Origin: a virus
Taxonomy: Duplodnaviria; Heunggongvirae; Uroviricota; Caudoviricetes
DNA: 43,574 nt
Virus record (IMG/VR): IMGVR_UViG_2718217869_000002
Location: 1-43,574 of that record
Strand: one strand, 5' to 3'
In this document: piece after piece, positions 3,613 to 43,574 of the stretch
Layout: each line of letters begins with the position of its first letter
How positions within the stretch are numbered: the stretch's first letter is position 1
Program-made: the position numbers and the translations under genes
Notes under the pieces: generated by a model
Databases searched by the model: none
What the model was told of the DNA's origin: nothing
Seen by the model: only the letters and a program-made list of their open reading frames with translations

Positions 3613-4320
3613 TCACTCTCCTTTGATGCGAATGCCAGCAAGCCAGTTTCTTATGCCGATATATTCAGCGTTCCTGAAACCGCTTTTTACATATATAAAT
3701 GGCAAGCGAAGATTGTGACCATTGACTGCCAGGTAGTCTTTACAACCCTGTTCGGTGAAACAGCAGGTAACGAATTCATCAATATCTTTCACAGCAACGC
3801 GCCGCCATTTTTCTGGTGGCTCTCGAAAGTTTTCGTGAAGTAGTTCGAGACGACGACTTTGGCGTTTATTGGCTTCATTGCCATCTTCATCAACCCAGAC
3901 AATCCGGTCATAGTCATAATCAGCATCAACAACGATTTCGCGCTTTTGATACACACAAAACATAGGGTCTGACGTTATTCGATTATCCTGTGTTCGAATA
4001 TTTTCACCGATGATGCCAAACGAATCTGGTGCAGAGTTTGTCTGCAACTCTTCGATACGTTCAGCCATAGCAGCACACTCTTCAAAGTTGCTTAATTCTT
4101 TTCGCTCCCATTCGGCGCATTGTTTTTCCAGTTCTGCTATGCGCTTACTCCCATCCGAGATAACGCCCTCGTAATACTCACGCTGCTCGTTGAGTTTTGA
4201 TTCAAGTTCACCGAACTTACGGACAAGATATTCAGCGTTTGTTTCGTTAACCTTTAAATCTCGTGGGAAGCATTTACCTTTCAGGAATCCATCCATCTCA
4301 ATTAGTGACATTTGTTTCAT
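3613..4320 (-). CDS. Hypothetical phage protein with N-terminal coiled coil (ea-region type)
   Basis: 235-aa ORF; heptad-like charged N-terminal half, Cys/aromatic-rich C-terminal half; start overlaps upstream stop (ATGA). Confidence 0.55.
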
Positions 4321-4481
4321 TTCTTCCCACTCCGCAACATCGCATTCAGATATTTGTTTTGATTTACTGATGGAAAAGAATTTCTCTTAAGCAATTCCTC
4401 TCTCGATGGCATTGGCTTTACGCGTTGGCGAATAATCATTTCTGCCGGAAGAATGCCGGGATTGTATGCAAGTCCTCTCAT
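4317..4481 (-). CDS. Small hypothetical phage protein (54 aa)
   Basis: ORF bracketed by ATGA overlaps with both neighbours (translational coupling). Confidence 0.4.
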
Positions 4482-4786
4482 GATTTACTCTCCATGAACT
4501 GGTCAACAGCCATGCTAAGTGATACACCTAACGTCTCGATATGCTGCTGAATATCCTGTAGCGTCTGCGCCTGAGATAACAGGATTTCACGGTTGCATAA
4601 CTCTTTAACCAGATGCTCAAACTTGCTGTAATAACCGATACGACTGAGCGTTTCTTTCCCTGCATTCTCGCCTTCTTTGATAATTCCTCTTTCGCTAAGA
4701 ATCAGGTCGTGTTTGGTTCCGGTAATAACGTATTTTCCGAGGTCGATGTTTAGCTTCATTGTTTTCATTGTTAATTCCTCAGTCAT
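4478..4786 (-). CDS. Hypothetical phage protein
   Basis: 102 aa from ATG at 4786 ([12 protein letters not shown]...), overlapping stop of upstream ORF; longer ORF in track is probably shadow extension. Confidence 0.5.
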
Positions 4787-5072
4787 TACTGATAGCGCCA
4801 TAGCGTGAGCGGTAATTACGCAGGCGCGGGTCAATTTCAGGGAAGTGGGTATATGTGGCTTTGTGGAATGGTCGGATTGATGTCTGGTAAATTCGCTCGC
4901 GTTCTTCTTTCTCTGCAAGCCATATACAATGGCGAAATTCCTTTTCCTCTTTCGTTTCCTGCGGTAGCGACATTATCCGATCGTAGTTTTTTCTGAATTT
5001 ATCCAGCACCTCCGATACGGAATTGCCGGAACAGCGGCGCGGGTCATCCGCACCATACAGAGGCGCTGGCAT
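4779..5072 (-). CDS. Hypothetical phage protein
   Basis: 97-aa ORF in co-directional early-left operon. Confidence 0.5.
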   Translation of the reverse strand: MPAPLYGADDPRRCSGNSVSEVLDKFRKNYDRIMSLPQETKEEKEFRHCIWLAEKEERERIYQTSIRPFHKATYTHFPEIDPRLRNYRSRYGAISND

Positions 5073-5088: not shown

Positions 5089-5637
5089 TTATTTAGCTAA
5101 CTTTTTCCAGATCGCTGAAACGTATTTGGCTTGGTGAATGGCATCATCAAGCGCGTTGTGGCGAGTTCCTTTGAATGGCATATCTCGCTTAGGGTCGAAT
5201 CCTATTACCTTTCCAAGCTCGACGATTGTTCTTACGTCGCGGTCATTCCACCACTGCCACGGAACTGGCCGCCCTGTCAGCGAATAACTGTTGCGGAGAA
5301 TAACGCAGTCAAATGATGCTCCATTCCCCCAAACCTGAACGAATTTGTGGTTAGCGTTCTTTATGATGAATTCAGATAACCATGAAAGAGCCGTTGAAAG
5401 CTCTTGAGTGTTGCTGGTTAGCGATTTTCTGGCTTCTTCACTCTGTTCCATCCACCATAAAATCGTTGAAGCGTCAGGACGCGCCCGATATCGCATTGAT
5501 GACTCAAGCGAGATATTTACCGAGAACTCTTCTCCTGTTTCTCCGGTATTCGGGTCAAAGAATACCGCCCCAATAGAAATAACTGGCGCGTATGGCCCGT
5601 TGCCCATTGTTTCAAGGTCAACCATTAAGTGATTCAT
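5089..5637 (-). CDS. Phage 3'-5' exonuclease (DnaQ-like/DEDD fold)
   Basis: 182 aa; N-terminal MVDLETMG motif and downstream acidic/His motifs typical of DEDDh exonucleases; adjacent to ssb and annealase genes. Confidence 0.65.
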   Translation of the reverse strand: MNHLMVDLETMGNGPYAPVISIGAVFFDPNTGETGEEFSVNISLESSMRYRARPDASTILWWMEQSEEARKSLTSNTQELSTALSWLSEFIIKNANHKFVQVWGNGASFDCVILRNSYSLTGRPVPWQWWNDRDVRTIVELGKVIGFDPKRDMPFKGTRHNALDDAIHQAKYVSAIWKKLAK

Positions 5638-5645
5638 GTAAGTCC

Positions 5646-6152
5646 TTAAATTGCGTGAATAGCGTGACGAGGGAAGGGGAGAGTTACTGGTGCAAAGGGT
5701 ATATCGTCGTCAAAATCCATCGGAGGTTCGTTGTGTTGTGCTGGTGATGATTGCTGCTGTGGCTTCTGTGATTGCCTGCTGGCTGCTTGTTGTTTGCTGT
5801 CGCCAATGCCGCCAAGCATTTGCATCACGCCATTAATTCCGACATGAACCTCGGTTGTGTAACGGTCTTGCCCTGACTGGTCTTTCCACTTTCTGGTTCT
5901 CAGCATTCCCTCGAAATAAATCTGATCACCTTTTTTCACATACTGCCCCACGACCTCAGCCAGTTTCCCGGATACAGCAACACGATGCCATTCAGTCAAT
6001 TCCTTTTGCTCGCCAGTATTTTTATCTCGCCATTGTTCTGACGTGGCTATTGTCAGGTTAGCGAACGCTGTTCCTGATGGTGAGTATCGAACTTCCGGGT
6101 CTTGTCCTACCCGACCAAGGATAATCACCTTATTTACGCCTCTGCTTGCCAT
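5646..6152 (-). CDS. ssb: Single-stranded DNA-binding protein
   Basis: OB-fold N-terminus highly similar to E. coli SSB, Gln/Pro-rich linker, acidic DFDDDIPF motif; here followed by 15 extra residues. Confidence 0.85.
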
Positions 6153-6860
6153 TTATGCCGCCTGTTTTAGTTCGTTAACTCTGATGTTCATTACCTGAAC
6201 GCATTTAGCCTGCGCATCCTCATTGCCAGCCATTAATTGCCAGTCATGCTGATAACGTTCTATGAGTTTTTTCTTGTCAGTTTCTGTTGATGCATAATCG
6301 CTGAAGTCTTTCAGGATTTGTTCGCAGTCAACCGATGGAGATTTCTGGTTGGTATTTTCTGGTGATGGTTTGTTATCTGATGCTGGGATTGCCCATCCCG
6401 GCAGCGATGGAGGGAGCCAGTAAAATCCTGTTCCATCTTTCAGTTTTGCCCTGTGCCATCCCTGCTTTTTATCGAGAGATGTTTGTGCGAAACCTTCCTC
6501 AAGGTTATACAGATACCGACCGATTCCCCATTGAACGGCAGCACGCTTCATTGCACCGGAACGACCACCTTTGACGGCTTCTACCTGCGTGTTTTCAGCA
6601 GCATCCCATTTGGTTACCCATTCGGAATCAATCTTTATCGATATGCCGCATTCAACGCCGCCGTTGTTGGGAATATCGCGGTATTCATTGCGCCATCCTG
6701 CTTTGCCGCAAACATCGTCCAGGCGCTTCATGATTGCCCGGTTCGTGACATAAGCCAGCACCATAGCCCACACTTTGCCATCGCGTGTTTTACCGCTTTG
6801 CTGTATTCGCCATTCGATATCTTCAGGGCTGAATGGCTCATCGAATTTATTCAAATCCAT
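6153..6860 (-). CDS. Rad52-like single-strand annealing protein (recombinase)
   Basis: 235 aa; motif KRAAVQWGIGRYLY characteristic of Rad52/Sak-type phage annealases; genomic context with ssb and exonuclease. Confidence 0.7.
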   Translation of the reverse strand: MDLNKFDEPFSPEDIEWRIQQSGKTRDGKVWAMVLAYVTNRAIMKRLDDVCGKAGWRNEYRDIPNNGGVECGISIKIDSEWVTKWDAAENTQVEAVKGGRSGAMKRAAVQWGIGRYLYNLEEGFAQTSLDKKQGWHRAKLKDGTGFYWLPPSLPGWAIPASDNKPSPENTNQKSPSVDCEQILKDFSDYASTETDKKKLIERYQHDWQLMAGNEDAQAKCVQVMNIRVNELKQAA

Positions 6861-6947
6861 AATTCACCTCAGAATGGACATGGCCCAAGGAAATAACGCT
6901 GATTTAATACTTCAGTCTTTGCCGCATTTAAAAATACGCGAACACCT

Positions 6948-7118
6948 TCACGATCTCCCTTCTGGCGATACATTAACGCCTGCTGCGTGTACATGCGTCT
7001 CTGTAACTTGCTCTCCTTCACTGTGGTTGCAAGTGACATGAATATCTCCTTCGTTACCGATTAAATCTTTCATCTGACGAATGAATTCTTCGTCTGACCA
7101 GTTATCTGTAAAACTCAT
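6948..7118 (-). CDS. Small hypothetical protein (56 aa)
   Basis: ATG at 7118 overlaps cIII stop (ATGA); position between cIII and recombination genes (kil/gam position in lambda) but no sequence similarity recognised. Confidence 0.4.
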   Translation of the reverse strand: MSFTDNWSDEEFIRQMKDLIGNEGDIHVTCNHSEGEQVTETHVHAAGVNVSPEGRS

Positions 7119-7721: not shown

Positions 7722-8027
7722 TCAAATAAGTGGTTTGCTGCCTAATTTCATTTTCTGGCGACCAACACATGTCACACCCATTTCACTGCGCGGCTTGCTG
7801 TACCATGTGCGCTGATTCTTGCGCTCAATACGTTGCAGGTTGCTTTCAATCTGTTCGTGGTATTCAGCCAGCACTGTAAGGTCTATCGGATTCAGTGCGC
7901 TTTCTACTCGTGATTTCGGTTTGCGATTCAGCGAGAGAATAGGGCGGTTAACTGGTTTTGCGCTTACCCCAACCAACAGGGGATTTGCTGCTTTCCATTG
8001 AGCCTGTTTCTCTGCGCGACGTTCGCG
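7722..8027 (-). pseudogene. N: Antitermination protein N, 3' portion (disrupted by IS insertion)
   Basis: Translation from ...ERRAEKQAQWKAANPLLVGVSAKPVNRPILSLNRKPKSRVESALNPIDLTVLAEYH... closely matches lambda N; reading frame upstream continues into IS terminal repeat. Confidence 0.85.
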
Positions 8028-8221
8028 TTGCGTATTTTCATGAAAGGAGATCACTCAATAACTTCCATCGAGATCGGGTAATAACATTTGAACAGATCGC
8101 TGAATAACATCGATGGAGATCACTTTTGACTCATTTTGTTATTCAGTGATCTCCATCAATGTTATTGGAACTTCACAGGTGTGTTGATCTGTATCTTTTG
8201 CCATTCCGGTAAAGGATACCT

Positions 8222-9763
8222 ATGCCAACAGTTCCAATTTCTATGAGAAAACTTAAAGAAATTCTTAGGCTTAAATACGGTGTTGGACTCAGCCATCGAC
8301 AAATTGGTCGTAGTCTTGCAATCTCCCCTTCCGTTGTATCCAGATATGCTAATCGGGCGGCTCAACTTGGCATAAAGCAGTGGCCCTTACCTACAGGATG
8401 GGATGATACAAAACTAAAACATGCGTTCCTTCAGACCCAGGTTAAGATGAAGAAGCACTCTCTGCCTGACTGGGCTACAGTACACCGGGAACTGCGTAAT
8501 AAATGCGTGACGCTGCAGCTACTCTGGGAAGAATACTGTGAGCGTAATCCAGGCGGTTTTTACAGCTATAACCATTACTGCCGGATGTACCGTGAATGGC
8601 TCAAAACCACTTCACCATCAATGCGTCAGGTACATAAAGCTGGCGAAAAACTTTTCGTTGATTACTGTGGACCTACCGTTGGCGTTACCGACCCTGAGAC
8701 CGGAGAAATAAGAACTGCTCAGGTCATCGTAGCTGTTCTCGGGGCATCAAGTTACACATGGGCAGAGGCCACCTGGTCTCAGCAGCTTGAAGACTGGGTG
8801 ATGAGTCATGTTCGCTGCTTCCAGTGGTTGGGTGGCGTTCCTGAACTTGTTGTTCCGGACAATCTGAAAAGCGCCACATCCAGGGCATGTAAGTATGATC
8901 CTGACGTTAACCCTACCTACCAGCAGATGCTTGAGCATTATAATGTCGCAGTTTTGCCTGCGCGGCCACGTAAACCGAAAGATAAAGCCAAAGCTGAAGT
9001 TGGCGTTCAGGTTGTTGAACGCTGGATCATGGCCCGAATCAGGCATGAGATCTTCTACAGCCTTGCATCGCTTAATCAGCGCATTCGGGAGTTGCTGGAA
9101 AGACTGAATAACAAAATAATGCAGAAGTTGGGTTATTCACGTGCAGAACTCTTCATCCAGCTTGATAAACCCGCACTGAAGCCTCTTCCTGAAGCCAGTT
9201 ACAGTTACACCCTGGTGAAGAAAGTCAGAGTTCATGCCGATTACCACGTGGAAATCGACAAACATTACTACTCGGTTCCATGTTCGCTGTTAGGCCAGCA
9301 ACTGGAAGCATGGATCTCCGGAGAACTGGTAAGACTCTTCAATCAGGGGCAGGAGGTTGCTGTGCACCCGCGCAAGCGTACTTATGGCTACAGTACCCGC
9401 AACGAGCACATGCCTGAAGCTCATCGACAGCATGCCACCTGGACGCCAGAGCGTCTTCTGGAATGGGCGGGGCACATAGGCAGTGAAACTCATAGTTATG
9501 TGCTTCATATACTGAACTCTCGTCCACATCCGGAACAAAGCTATCGCTTCTGCCTTGGACTCCTGAACCTTCATAAAAAATACAGTAAAGCCAGACTTAA
9601 TGCAGCATGTGCAAGAGCTCTGAAAACAAAGGTATGGCGTCTGTCAGGTATTAAATCGATCCTGGAAAAAGGTCTGGATAAACAACCTGTTCAGGATCCA
9701 AAACCAGATCTGTTATCCACGATGGAACACGAAAACGTACGCGGCAGTGAGTATTACCACTGA
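8222..9763 (+). CDS. istA: IS21-family transposase IstA
   Basis: 513 aa with N-terminal HTH and DDE integrase-core-like region; size and tandem arrangement with istB. Confidence 0.8.
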   Translation: MPTVPISMRKLKEILRLKYGVGLSHRQIGRSLAISPSVVSRYANRAAQLGIKQWPLPTGWDDTKLKHAFLQTQVKMKKHSLPDWATVHRELRNKCVTLQLLWEEYCERNPGGFYSYNHYCRMYREWLKTTSPSMRQVHKAGEKLFVDYCGPTVGVTDPETGEIRTAQVIVAVLGASSYTWAEATWSQQLEDWVMSHVRCFQWLGGVPELVVPDNLKSATSRACKYDPDVNPTYQQMLEHYNVAVLPARPRKPKDKAKAEVGVQVVERWIMARIRHEIFYSLASLNQRIRELLERLNNKIMQKLGYSRAELFIQLDKPALKPLPEASYSYTLVKKVRVHADYHVEIDKHYYSVPCSLLGQQLEAWISGELVRLFNQGQEVAVHPRKRTYGYSTRNEHMPEAHRQHATWTPERLLEWAGHIGSETHSYVLHILNSRPHPEQSYRFCLGLLNLHKKYSKARLNAACARALKTKVWRLSGIKSILEKGLDKQPVQDPKPDLLSTMEHENVRGSEYYH

Positions 9764-9774
9764 TACGGGATCCA

Positions 9775-10524
9775 ATGATGAATCATCTTTACGAACAACT
9801 GACCGCACTTAAACTCACCGGCTTCCGTGATGCGCTTAAAAAGCAACTTGCTCAACCGGGCACATACCAGGAGCTGGGCTTCGAAGAACGCCTGTCATTA
9901 CTGACAGCAGAAGAACTAACCTGCCGTGAAAACAGGAAGGCAGAGCGTCTGATCAAACATGCACGGTTCAGACTTAATGCTGAGTTATCAAAGCTGGATT
10001 ATCGTAACAATAGAGGGCTGGACAGGGCCCTCATCCGTTCACTCAGTCAGGGAAACTGGTTAACCCTGAAACAAAATATTTTACTGACCGGGGCCACCGG
10101 CAGCGGTAAAACGTTCCTGGCATGTGCACTTGGTCATAATGCCTGCCGACAGGGATACAAGGTCTACTATTATCGCCTTAAAGCGCTGATGGAACAGTGC
10201 TATCAGGGGCATGCTGATGGAAGATACAGCAAACTTTTGACCAGGCTGAATAATAGCGATCTGCTGCTTCTGGATGACTGGGGGCTGGAACCTCTCTCAT
10301 CAGAACAGCGTAGCGACCTGCTGGAAATAGTGGATCTGATGTACCAACGAGGCTCAATCATCGTAGTGAGCCAGTTGCCGGTGGAAAACTGGTACAAAAT
10401 GATCGGAGACTCCACACATGCGGATGCCATCCTAGATCGACTGGTTCATGGCAGTATCAAGATCGAACTTAAAGGAGAATCAATGCGGAAAATACAATCT
10501 CCGTTGACCGAAGGAGATCAGTGA
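9775..10524 (+). CDS. istB: IS21-family helper ATPase IstB
   Basis: 249 aa with Walker A LTGATGSGKTFLA and Walker B LLLLDD motifs. Confidence 0.85.
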   Translation: MMNHLYEQLTALKLTGFRDALKKQLAQPGTYQELGFEERLSLLTAEELTCRENRKAERLIKHARFRLNAELSKLDYRNNRGLDRALIRSLSQGNWLTLKQNILLTGATGSGKTFLACALGHNACRQGYKVYYYRLKALMEQCYQGHADGRYSKLLTRLNNSDLLLLDDWGLEPLSSEQRSDLLEIVDLMYQRGSIIVVSQLPVENWYKMIGDSTHADAILDRLVHGSIKIELKGESMRKIQSPLTEGDQ

Positions 10525-10609
10525 AGGTAATTTAAAAACGGTTCTGTGAAAGTGACACGAACCGATCTCCATCGATGTTACTCACCGATCTCCTTCACGG
10601 TAATACGCA

Positions 10610-10634
10610 CGCGGCGGCGTGTTTGAGAGTCCAT
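10610..10634 (-). pseudogene. N: Antitermination protein N, 5' fragment (first 8 codons)
   Basis: Minus strand ATG GAC TCT CAA ACA CGC CGC CGC G matches lambda N start ATG GAT GCA CAA ACA CGC CGC CGC G; ends at IS boundary. Confidence 0.75.
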
Positions 10635-21648: not shown

Positions 21649-22170
21649 ATGAACTACCCAACCGTTGTTAACGATATAGATTTCAGAGACCTAATTTTTG
21701 TAGCAAACAACGATCCGGTTACAGATTCTTTTATGGTGGCAAAAGCATTTGGAAAGCTGCCGAAGAACGTAGTCCGTGACATTGAGCGAACCATAGAAGC
21801 TTGCCCTCCTGAGTTTGATACAAAGCTCAACTTTGAGCTTTGCTATAAAAACAATGAGTTACAGAATGGTAAGCCGCAAAAATTCTACCGTCTCCGCAAG
21901 GATGGGTTGATGCTTTTGGTTATGTCCTACACCAAAAAAGAAGCAATGCGTATCAAAATTGCTTACATCAACGCATTTAACTGGATGTACGCCATGCTTC
22001 AGGTTGGTCATCTTCAATTTGAAGAAGAGAGAAATGCCGTAATGCTGGAGTACATGAAAGAGAAGGATGTTGCCAGCATGTCAGGTCGCCTGCTAAATCG
22101 CTGGGGAAAATTAAGAAGCCTCAGCTACTGGCGAGAATTGAACGCCTTGAACAGCACGGGCAAACCGTAA
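21649..22170 (+). CDS. Rha-family phage regulatory protein
   Basis: 173 aa; N-terminal region (NNDPVTDSFMVAKAFGK...VVRDIERTIE) typical of Rha-type proteins; from memory. Confidence 0.55.
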   Translation: MNYPTVVNDIDFRDLIFVANNDPVTDSFMVAKAFGKLPKNVVRDIERTIEACPPEFDTKLNFELCYKNNELQNGKPQKFYRLRKDGLMLLVMSYTKKEAMRIKIAYINAFNWMYAMLQVGHLQFEEERNAVMLEYMKEKDVASMSGRLLNRWGKLRSLSYWRELNALNSTGKP

Positions 22171-22349
22171 TCCCCGGACTCACTAATTAACGGCAGTACA
22201 GCGAAACAACCCAAGCCAGTAAGTGGGGAAATAACACTGGCAGCCACTGAAAGATGAACCTCCTGCCTTATGGCAAAAAAAGATTCTTTGTGGTGGCGGA
22301 CTGATGGAAAGACATCCTAATCAAGCAACCACTCCACAGGGTCATAATT

Positions 22350-42416: not shown

Positions 42417-43574
42417 TCACTCCACCTTTTCATCAAGCCAATCCGCCCACCACTGCATCATTTCTCTGCGCTTATCGAGATACTGTGCATGGTTGTAAAT
42501 CCCGCGCACAGATCCGCCGTTGGCATGTGCCAGTTGCACTTCAATAGCGTCAGCAGGCCATTCGTGCTCGTTCATAATTGTGCTGAATTCATGCCTGAAT
42601 CCGTGACCGCTTTCCAGACCCTCATAGCCGATTTGTTTGATCACAAGCAATACCGCGTTCTCGCAGATTGGCTTCTTCTTATCGTTGCGCCCGGCAAAAA
42701 CAAACTCTGATACTGGTTTAGTGATGGAGCTTAGCGTAGTGAGAAGTTCATCCACCTGGTCTGACATAGGAACAACATGAATCTTGCGGCCCTTCATCAC
42801 ACTGGCGTCGATAGTGATAATCCTGTTTTCAAAATCGACGTTCTTCCATTGCATGGAACGAAGCTCTTTCGTTCTTAGGGCTGTGTAGCGTAAAACTTTG
42901 GTCGCAATGAGCGATACGATGCTTCCTGAAAATGTTGCAAGTGCTTTGTTAAATGCCGGGATCTGGTCTGCAGGAAGAAACGGGAAGTTCTTCTTGCGGT
43001 ATCCCTTCATGGCGTCAGCAAGGTCAGGTGCCGGGTTATATTTAGCCCTTCCGGTGACAATAGCGTAACGGAAAACCTCGCCGCATCTTCTGCGTGCTTT
43101 GTTTGCTCGCTCCATTGCGCCGCGATCTTCAAATCTGCGGATTACTTCCAACAGTTGCATCGGCTCAATATCCTGAATTTCAAGGCCGCCGATGATGGGT
43201 AAAATGTCGTCATCAAACATTTTTGCAAGTTCATTTGCATAGCCTACTGACCAGACTTGCTTCTTGTGCTCGTACCATTCCTTGTAAATGGCGCTAAAGG
43301 AGTTGTTGTTAGACGAAGCCTTTTTCGCTTTTACCGGATCGATTCCAACCGAGATGTCTTTCCTCGCAGTCCATGCTTTATCCCTTGCCTCCTGCAAAGT
43401 CATAAGCGGATATTTTCCTACGGTCAGTATTTTTTCCTTACCGTCAATCTTGTAGCGAAGCTGCCATACCTTTTTCCCGGATACAGGGACATAAAGGTAC
43501 AGGCCATTACCATCGAGAAGGCGGTATGGTTTTTCTTTCGGCTTTGCTGCTTCAATCTGCTTAACGGTGAGCAT
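42417..43574 (-). CDS. intS: Tyrosine integrase (IntS/CPS-53 type)
   Basis: 385 aa; C-terminal catalytic R..H..R..Y region (HGFRHEF..., ...LAHANG...RGIYNHAQY); start codon at window end, transcribed toward gtrA. Confidence 0.9.
   Translation of the reverse strand: MLTVKQIEAAKPKEKPYRLLDGNGLYLYVPVSGKKVWQLRYKIDGKEKILTVGKYPLMTLQEARDKAWTARKDISVGIDPVKAKKASSNNNSFSAIYKEWYEHKKQVWSVGYANELAKMFDDDILPIIGGLEIQDIEPMQLLEVIRRFEDRGAMERANKARRRCGEVFRYAIVTGRAKYNPAPDLADAMKGYRKKNFPFLPADQIPAFNKALATFSGSIVSLIATKVLRYTALRTKELRSMQWKNVDFENRIITIDASVMKGRKIHVVPMSDQVDELLTTLSSITKPVSEFVFAGRNDKKKPICENAVLLVIKQIGYEGLESGHGFRHEFSTIMNEHEWPADAIEVQLAHANGGSVRGIYNHAQYLDKRREMMQWWADWLDEKVE

Follow-up and report, generated by a model that had tools for sequence, protein, structure and literature searches.

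Predicted Abc2, DUF5405 and DUF2737 genes in the early-left operon of a P22/Sf6/HK620-like Escherichia coli prophage

Introduction

The RecBCD nuclease of the host is the target of Abc2 from phage P22, and likewise of Gam from phage lambda and gp5.9 from phage T7. Gam is also encoded in an early-left recombination module. However, Gam and gp5.9 are unrelated to Abc2 in both sequence and mechanism; both of them block the DNA-binding site. In the case of P22 Abc2, the RecC-binding part was modelled for residues 3-66, and Pro68 was proposed to enter the active site of PpiB (PMC9836394). Abc2 is one of four anti-RecBCD types distinguished in a survey of the recombination modules of lambdoid phages from 2025, the consulted sections of which contain no mention of the small genes downstream of abc2 (PMC12315714). 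Several defence systems, among them OLD, retron Ec48 and Gabija, are reported to be responsive to interference with RecBCD.

In the P22 genome (NC_002371), abc1 and abc2 are accompanied by orf56 and eaE. Behind abc2, across a gap of 10 nt, comes orf56, which encodes a DUF2737 protein and overlaps the Ea-region gene that follows it; these genes lie in the same operon and direction. Erf, Arf and Abc1 are encoded upstream, and P22 is without a DUF5405 cassette. In contrast, phages Sf6 (genes 25-24-23) and HK446 (gp30-gp29-gp28) possess the string abc2, DUF5405, DUF2737. The DUF5405 family (PF17399) includes Orf83 of phages P2 and 186. In P2-like phages, however, the Orf83 gene is located beside genes for a TraR/DksA-like protein (Orf82) and replication protein A, and not beside abc2. 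In HK446, the gene directly after the DUF2737 gene, gp27, encodes Oad2, which inhibits the OLD defence of P2, according to a 2026 preprint; OLD is triggered by a small protein, Gp33, from the HK75/HK446 recombination locus, and gp27 was the only OLD inhibitor reported from a screen of an HK446 library (10.64898/2026.07.10.737580).

Here, we describe three small ORFs (ORF1, ORF2 and ORF3) of an E. coli prophage and compare them with these systems. The window, which means the whole stretch of 43,574 nt that was analysed, contains the same string as Sf6 and HK446, with 95-98% protein identity and the same junctions.

Results and discussion

The prophage and its early-left operon

According to the RefSeq annotation of the Ecol_545 record, the window (1-43574) is essentially one complete P22/Sf6/HK620-like E. 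coli prophage. The 3.4 kb surrounding the three ORFs match the chromosome of E. coli strain Ecol_545 with 100% identity. In addition to IntS and genes for O-antigen glucosylation, the prophage encodes a tailspike and a capsid and portal of the P22 type. The nin genes are present, as are N, a recombination module and the genes for a cI-like repressor and a TorI-type excisionase. The IntS gene is located at 42417-43574, and the O-antigen glucosylation genes, the tailspike gene and the P22-type head genes come next to it. A cscB-like sugar transporter gene (1-1248) adjoins the TorI-type excisionase end of the prophage. Neither Rfam families nor tRNA genes were detected when the whole window was scanned for them.

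The early-left operon is encoded on the minus strand. From 5′ to 3′, it contains the genes for a Rad52-like annealing protein (6153-6860), SSB (5646-6152) and a DnaQ-like 3′-5′ exonuclease (5089-5637), followed by ORF1-3 and an Ea-region gene. The annealing protein and SSB were assigned by PF04098 (E 5e-26), phrog_1097 (E 5e-130) and TIGR00621. The exonuclease, which belongs to the recombination module and is encoded upstream of ORF1, matches PF16473 with E 5e-73. Three small ORFs directly downstream of this exonuclease gene had been marked in an earlier note on this DNA, and they were found there with lengths of 97, 102 (counted from the first ATG) and 54 amino acids. In the minus strand between 6937 and 3501, neither a promoter-like nor a terminator-like site was found. 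Therefore, the region fits a single transcription unit.

The modules upstream of abc2 differ between the phages compared. In place of the Erf, Arf and Abc1 genes of P22, the prophage possesses the genes for the Rad52-like annealing protein, SSB and the DnaQ-like exonuclease, and has no Abc1. Where the prophage has the DnaQ-like exonuclease, Sf6 encodes an HNH-type endonuclease and HK446 encodes the uncharacterised gp31. The ORF at 6869-7039 was considered as a counterpart of the OLD trigger, gp33 of HK446, and was rejected; there is no similarity between them.

The gene downstream of ORF3 (3613-4320, minus strand) is an intact ORF of 235 amino acids, of which RefSeq annotates the first 195 nt only, as a partial pseudogene. 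It shows a weak Ead/Ea22-like match (PF13935; 25.7 bits, below the cutoff of 27) and a match to phrog_3205 (E 6e-53). This gene occupies the position of Oad2 in HK446. However, it was rejected as an Oad2 (HK446 gp27) homologue, because only residues 1-43 can be aligned (93% identical) and the remainder is unrelated.

Assignment of ORF1

ORF1 (4779-5072, minus strand; 97 amino acids) was compared with protein family profiles and with the P22 protein. Residues 1-97 align with profile positions 1-97 of PF11043 (E 3.4e-63), with a score of 210.3 bits versus a cutoff of 25. Moreover, ORF1 matches phrog_656, 'abc2 anti-RecBCD', with E 1e-54. ORF1 could also be aligned over its entire length with Abc2 of P22 as solved in complex with RecBCD (PDB 8B1T/8B1U; E 1e-57). 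The full-length protein shows very few differences from P22 Abc2: in comparison with chain A of 8B1T, there are two substitutions in residues 1-66 (L32R and A65S), and the IRPF motif and Pro68 are kept. In RefSeq, ORF1 is named 'phage anti-RecBCD protein'. The abc2 gene closes the early-left recombination module on its distal side, as it does in epsilon34, mEpX2, ES18 and P22.

Judging from these alignments, ORF1 is Abc2 (phage anti-RecBCD protein 2), which is known to modulate the RecBCD nuclease of the host. It had been guessed from the gene arrangement that small genes of this kind encode inhibitors of host nucleases; for ORF1, the PF11043 match and the alignment with P22 Abc2 bear this guess out. 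Abc2 would redirect RecBCD and not block it, and phage DNA ends would thereby be spared and passed to the recombinase of the phage itself. We infer this mechanism for ORF1 by homology with the P22 protein (PMC9836394).

Assignment of ORF2 and ORF3

ORF2 (4478-4768, minus strand; 96 amino acids) could be assigned to the DUF5405/P2 Orf83 family. Its score against PF17399 (DUF5405) is only modestly above the threshold (25.2 bits versus a cutoff of 21.6). ORF2 also matches phrog_154 with E 4e-32, and is approximately 34% identical to P2 Orf83 across 92% of its length. An AlphaFold2 model of ORF2 (pLDDT 91) contains four strands followed by two helices. In Foldseek searches, this model matched DUF5405 proteins of phages TR2 and MP1 with TM scores of 0.85 and 0.76, respectively, and the same fold is predicted for other phage members of the P2 and 186 Orf83 family. 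The Foldseek matches also included uncharacterised proteins from many unrelated phages. The modest Pfam score is in line with the matches obtained by PHROG, tblastn and fold comparison. The model depicts ORF2 as a compact strand-and-helix domain, and this domain was found in phages only. In RefSeq, ORF2 is named 'DUF5405 family protein'. In the literature that was searched, DUF5405 was never mentioned, and nothing useful was found for P2 Orf83.

ORF3 (4317-4481, minus strand; 54 amino acids) aligns with positions 1-53 of the 53 positions of PF10930 (DUF2737), with a score of 110.5 bits versus a cutoff of 25, and matches phrog_1117 with E 1e-37. It is the counterpart of P22 orf56, HK97 gp38 and HK620 HkaI. 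ORF3 is 77% identical to P22 orf56, which occupies the same place right behind abc2. The protein is very basic (pI 11.0), with 11 lysine and arginine residues versus 3 aspartate and glutamate residues. The structural model of ORF3 is of low confidence (pLDDT 64, pTM 0.22) and was too poor for a fold search. As judged from this model, ORF3 is probably a peptide that folds only on a partner. The DUF2737 family is narrow: in a set of 1.84 billion representatives, it accounts for only 61 clusters at 50% identity. A scan of species-dereplicated genomes with the DUF2737 alignment gave 7 loci, a low number that is due to the narrow search patterns used. In the searched literature, DUF2737 was found once, in passing. 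In the supplements of PMC12373910, DUF2737 appears solely as a neighbour of abc2, and none of the sequence fragments searched for was present there.

Profile searches of the PDB with the ORF2 and ORF3 alignments yielded nothing meaningful, and no NCBIfam model matched ORF1, ORF2 or ORF3. We found no evidence against the family assignments of the three ORFs, and the annotations given in RefSeq and in phage records to identical or near-identical DNA are consistent with them. The earlier note had stated that none of them resembles a known family. This statement was not borne out, because all three lie above the curated Pfam thresholds and are named accordingly in RefSeq. By these profile matches, the three genes are already known as members of catalogued phage families.

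Junctions between the genes

Tight packing of genes, including 4-nt ATGA overlaps, is common in phage early operons. Two such overlaps can be read directly in the sequence of the minus strand. The stop codon of ORF2 and the start codon of ORF3 share the ATGA at 4478-4481, and 100 of 102 related loci retain it. The stop codon of ORF3 and the start codon of the next gene share the ATGA at 4317-4320; at this junction, ATGA was found in 184 of 250 loci, and the rest mostly have GTGA.

The junction between abc2 and ORF2 (4769-4786, minus strand) is different. The sequence ATGACTGA is present at 4779-4786, and its ATG (4786-4784) is a part of the last two Abc2 codons, AAT GAC. If this ATG were used, ORF2 would consist of 102 amino acids (4478-4786). 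However, the upstream ATG is missing in P22, ES18, SPN9CC and the IMG/VR loci L082 and L140, in which the corresponding codons are AAT AAC. In ES18 and SPN9CC, the ORF2 homologue begins 10 nt past the abc2 stop codon. In the prophage, the abc2 stop codon TGA (4781-4779) is located inside the GAGGA sequence (4780-4776), and a gap of 10 nt separates it from the ATG at 4768. This ATG is 7 nt behind the GAGGA ribosome-binding site. Most members of the ORF2 family have MKLNI as their N-terminus. The annotated lengths of ORF2 are 96 amino acids in phage records (start at 4768) and 93 amino acids in RefSeq (start at 4759). From the comparison of these loci, the most likely start of ORF2 is the ATG at 4768, which leaves 10 nt between it and the abc2 stop codon, and the ATGACTGA overlap is judged not to be a start site.

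The junction sequence TGAGGAATTnACnATG (4766-4781 in the window) is conserved in approximately 170 loci, before ORF2 or the DUF2737 gene alike. Because TGAGGAATTnACnATG precedes whichever gene comes next, the ORF2 gene looks like a cassette that was inserted exactly between the ribosome-binding site and the start codon of the DUF2737 gene. It should be mentioned that TGAGGAATTnACnATG at the end of abc2 acts as a portable ribosome-binding site and, at the same time, as a mosaic boundary, in that either the DUF2737 gene or the DUF5405 cassette is joined to it with base precision at the same ATG.

Thus, of the three chained overlaps that had been described for these genes, the two ATGA overlaps are real and conserved, and the one at the end of abc2 does not contain a conserved start. 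The arrangement at the abc2-ORF2 junction, with a 10-nt gap and no overlap, would still favour coupling, and translational coupling is plausible at all three junctions on the evidence of their sequences. However, coupling alone does not imply equal stoichiometry. The proposal of stoichiometric co-expression was therefore an overreach; one of the overlaps is no start site, and the operon is parted from its promoter by an insertion sequence, as described in the last section.

Distribution of the gene string among phages

We analysed the neighbourhoods of the three genes in IMG/VR and in a phage collection. In IMG/VR, DUF2737 was found in 79 of 80 loci anchored on abc2, and abc2 was found in all 79 loci anchored on DUF2737. 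In the phage collection, 224 records contained a full-length Abc2 and 223 contained a full-length DUF2737, these being two separate totals. In contrast, ORF2 is an optional cassette and was present in 16 of the 80 sampled abc2-anchored IMG/VR loci. When loci were anchored on ORF2, it began 10 nt after abc2 in 75 of 79, and DUF2737 was directly next in all 79. The order abc2, (optional) DUF5405, DUF2737 recurs in HK446, Sf6, ES18, P22, mEpX2, Stx phages and an Intestinirhabdus prophage. The median pairwise dN/dS values were 0.12 for ORF1, 0.10 for ORF2 and 0.27 for ORF3, which indicates purifying selection on all three genes. A check of conservation and synteny had been recommended for these frames; on both counts, it came out in favour of genuine genes, with the frames conserved in related phages and the gene order recurrent.

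The pair of abc2 and DUF2737 is kept together with differing annealing proteins and Abc2 types, as seen in P22, ES18, the Intestinirhabdus prophage and a Stx phage. For example, the Stx phage encodes an ATPase-type recombinase and an Abc2 of 61% identity, and the pair is still kept. In the divergent phage Tbat2_3, an Abc2 of 34% identity is followed by an ORF2 relative of 50% identity. Loci without abc2 were also found. HK140-type loci (L242 2173-3449, IMG/VR) contain RecT, a Gam-like gene, a small ORF of 104 amino acids, ORF2 and DUF2737, and Cronobacter phage ENT47670 (L167 2086-3153) contains RecT, an exonuclease, a small ORF and DUF2737. The small ORFs (approximately 105 amino acids) before DUF2737 in these two loci are alike by eye. 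In Jersey-like virulent phages, a DUF2737 relative is located in a cluster of small genes with no abc2 nearby.

The pairwise distances of Abc2 and DUF2737 were not correlated (Spearman r -0.04, exceeded in 387 of 500 permutations). Therefore, the alleles seem to have been exchanged freely although the adjacency of the two genes was kept.

Possible functions of the three genes

As a whole, the locus is best explained as three consecutive PL-operon genes, for Abc2, DUF5405 and DUF2737, of a P22/Sf6/HK620-like prophage, and we hold this explanation to be highly probable. The three genes would stand at the distal end of the recombination module formed by the Rad52-like annealing protein, SSB and the DnaQ-like exonuclease. 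They would be carried on one transcript, and their translation would be closely coupled, with the abc2 stop codon within the ribosome-binding site of the next gene and then two ATGA overlaps. It is practically excluded that the three ORFs are chance open frames and not genes: only their small size speaks for this, whereas all three are above the Pfam threshold, are under purifying selection by the dN/dS values given above, and keep their reading frames across divergent phages, so that their conservation already refutes it. As for ORF2, a role as a replication initiation protein could be read from phrog_154, which is labelled in this way, and P2-like homologues do adjoin replication gene A. Nevertheless, such a role is very improbable. 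The label appears to trace only to annotation names (for example, in phage phiKT), and no experimental support for it was found in the searched literature. Furthermore, ORF2 has only 96 amino acids and no match to known initiator folds, and in lambdoid phages its gene belongs to the recombination/ea region, well away from the replication genes, and is dispensable in most relatives.

Two further proposals would add a function to ORF2 or ORF3 beyond their family names. One is that ORF2 and/or ORF3 act as inhibitors, so far uncharacterised, against a nuclease or a defence system of the host, which is possible, if somewhat unlikely. This proposal draws on the location of the genes in a region with demonstrated counter-defence genes, namely Abc2 and HK446 gp27 (Oad2), and on their small size and purifying selection; moreover, ORF2 shows cassette-like presence and absence and a phage-only fold, and the basic character and low-confidence fold of ORF3 are what would be expected of a partner-binding peptide. 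However, neither of them is similar in sequence or fold to any characterised inhibitor, and HK446 carries homologues of both, yet the screen of HK446 for OLD inhibitors gave gp27 only. In addition, DUF2737 is near-constant beside abc2, unlike typical counter-defence genes, which are variable accessories, and the DUF5405 relatives in P2-like phages adjoin replication genes. The other proposal is that DUF2737 cooperates functionally with Abc2 or with the recombination module, as an accessory comparable to P22 Abc1 or Arf, and that abc2 and DUF2737 form one unit. The near-perfect co-occurrence and adjacency across Abc2 types and annealing proteins point in this direction, as do the conserved coupling junction and the position of DUF2737 behind a recombination or anti-RecBCD module even where abc2 is absent (HK140-type loci and ENT47670). 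We nevertheless consider it unlikely, since the distances of Abc2 and DUF2737 are uncorrelated and the alleles are shuffled, Jersey-like virulent phages have a DUF2737 relative without abc2 nearby, the RecBCD-Abc2 complex was assembled without DUF2737 (PMC9836394), and the adjacency could reflect homologous recombination at conserved flanks. In particular, the free exchange of alleles, as deduced from the sequence distances, weakens the idea of a tightly co-adapted Abc2 and DUF2737 pair. The more specific version, in which DUF2737 is an overlooked partner of Abc2 or recombination modules that acts as a small, basic, partner-folded peptide coupled to abc2, is put forward as a conjecture that we regard as improbable.

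As it stands, the assignment of Abc2, DUF5405 and DUF2737 is a routine annotation of a prophage with abc2 and two catalogued, conserved phage genes, in which ORF1 is a textbook case of anti-RecBCD function. The one thread worth keeping is the near-constant pairing of abc2 with DUF2737. If DUF2737 were a partner of Abc2, the classical P22 'abc' function would have a third component, which would have been overlooked since the region was first sequenced. Because DUF2737 stays right after abc2 across many phages despite the shuffled alleles, P22 orf56 is a cheap and specific candidate for studies of how phages manipulate RecBCD. Counter-defence screens could reasonably include the optional DUF5405 cassette, because at least one anti-defence gene, Oad2, is known from the region just downstream.

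Insertion of ISEc12 into N

The antiterminator gene N of the prophage is split by an insertion sequence. ISEc12, an IS21-family element, occupies 8029-10609 (its ends are approximate) on the plus strand, with annotated istA and istB and with terminal inverted repeats. The insertion point is approximately at the ninth codon of N, and the two parts of N are located at 7722-8054 and 10611-10634. The first 8 codons (MDSQTRRR) are at 10634-10611, and the N frame picks up again near 8027 with ERRAEKQ. As read from the sequence, PL, nutL and the start of N are cut off by ISEc12 from the rest of N and from the entire early-left operon. Because the operon is parted from PL and nutL in this way, normal early expression of ORF1-3 in Ecol_545 is doubtful, and the prophage is probably crippled for early-left expression. 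The three ORFs themselves are intact despite ISEc12. The gene for a Rha-family regulator (approximately 21649-22190; BE949_RS08915) is frameshifted according to RefSeq, which is a second sign of decay of this prophage.
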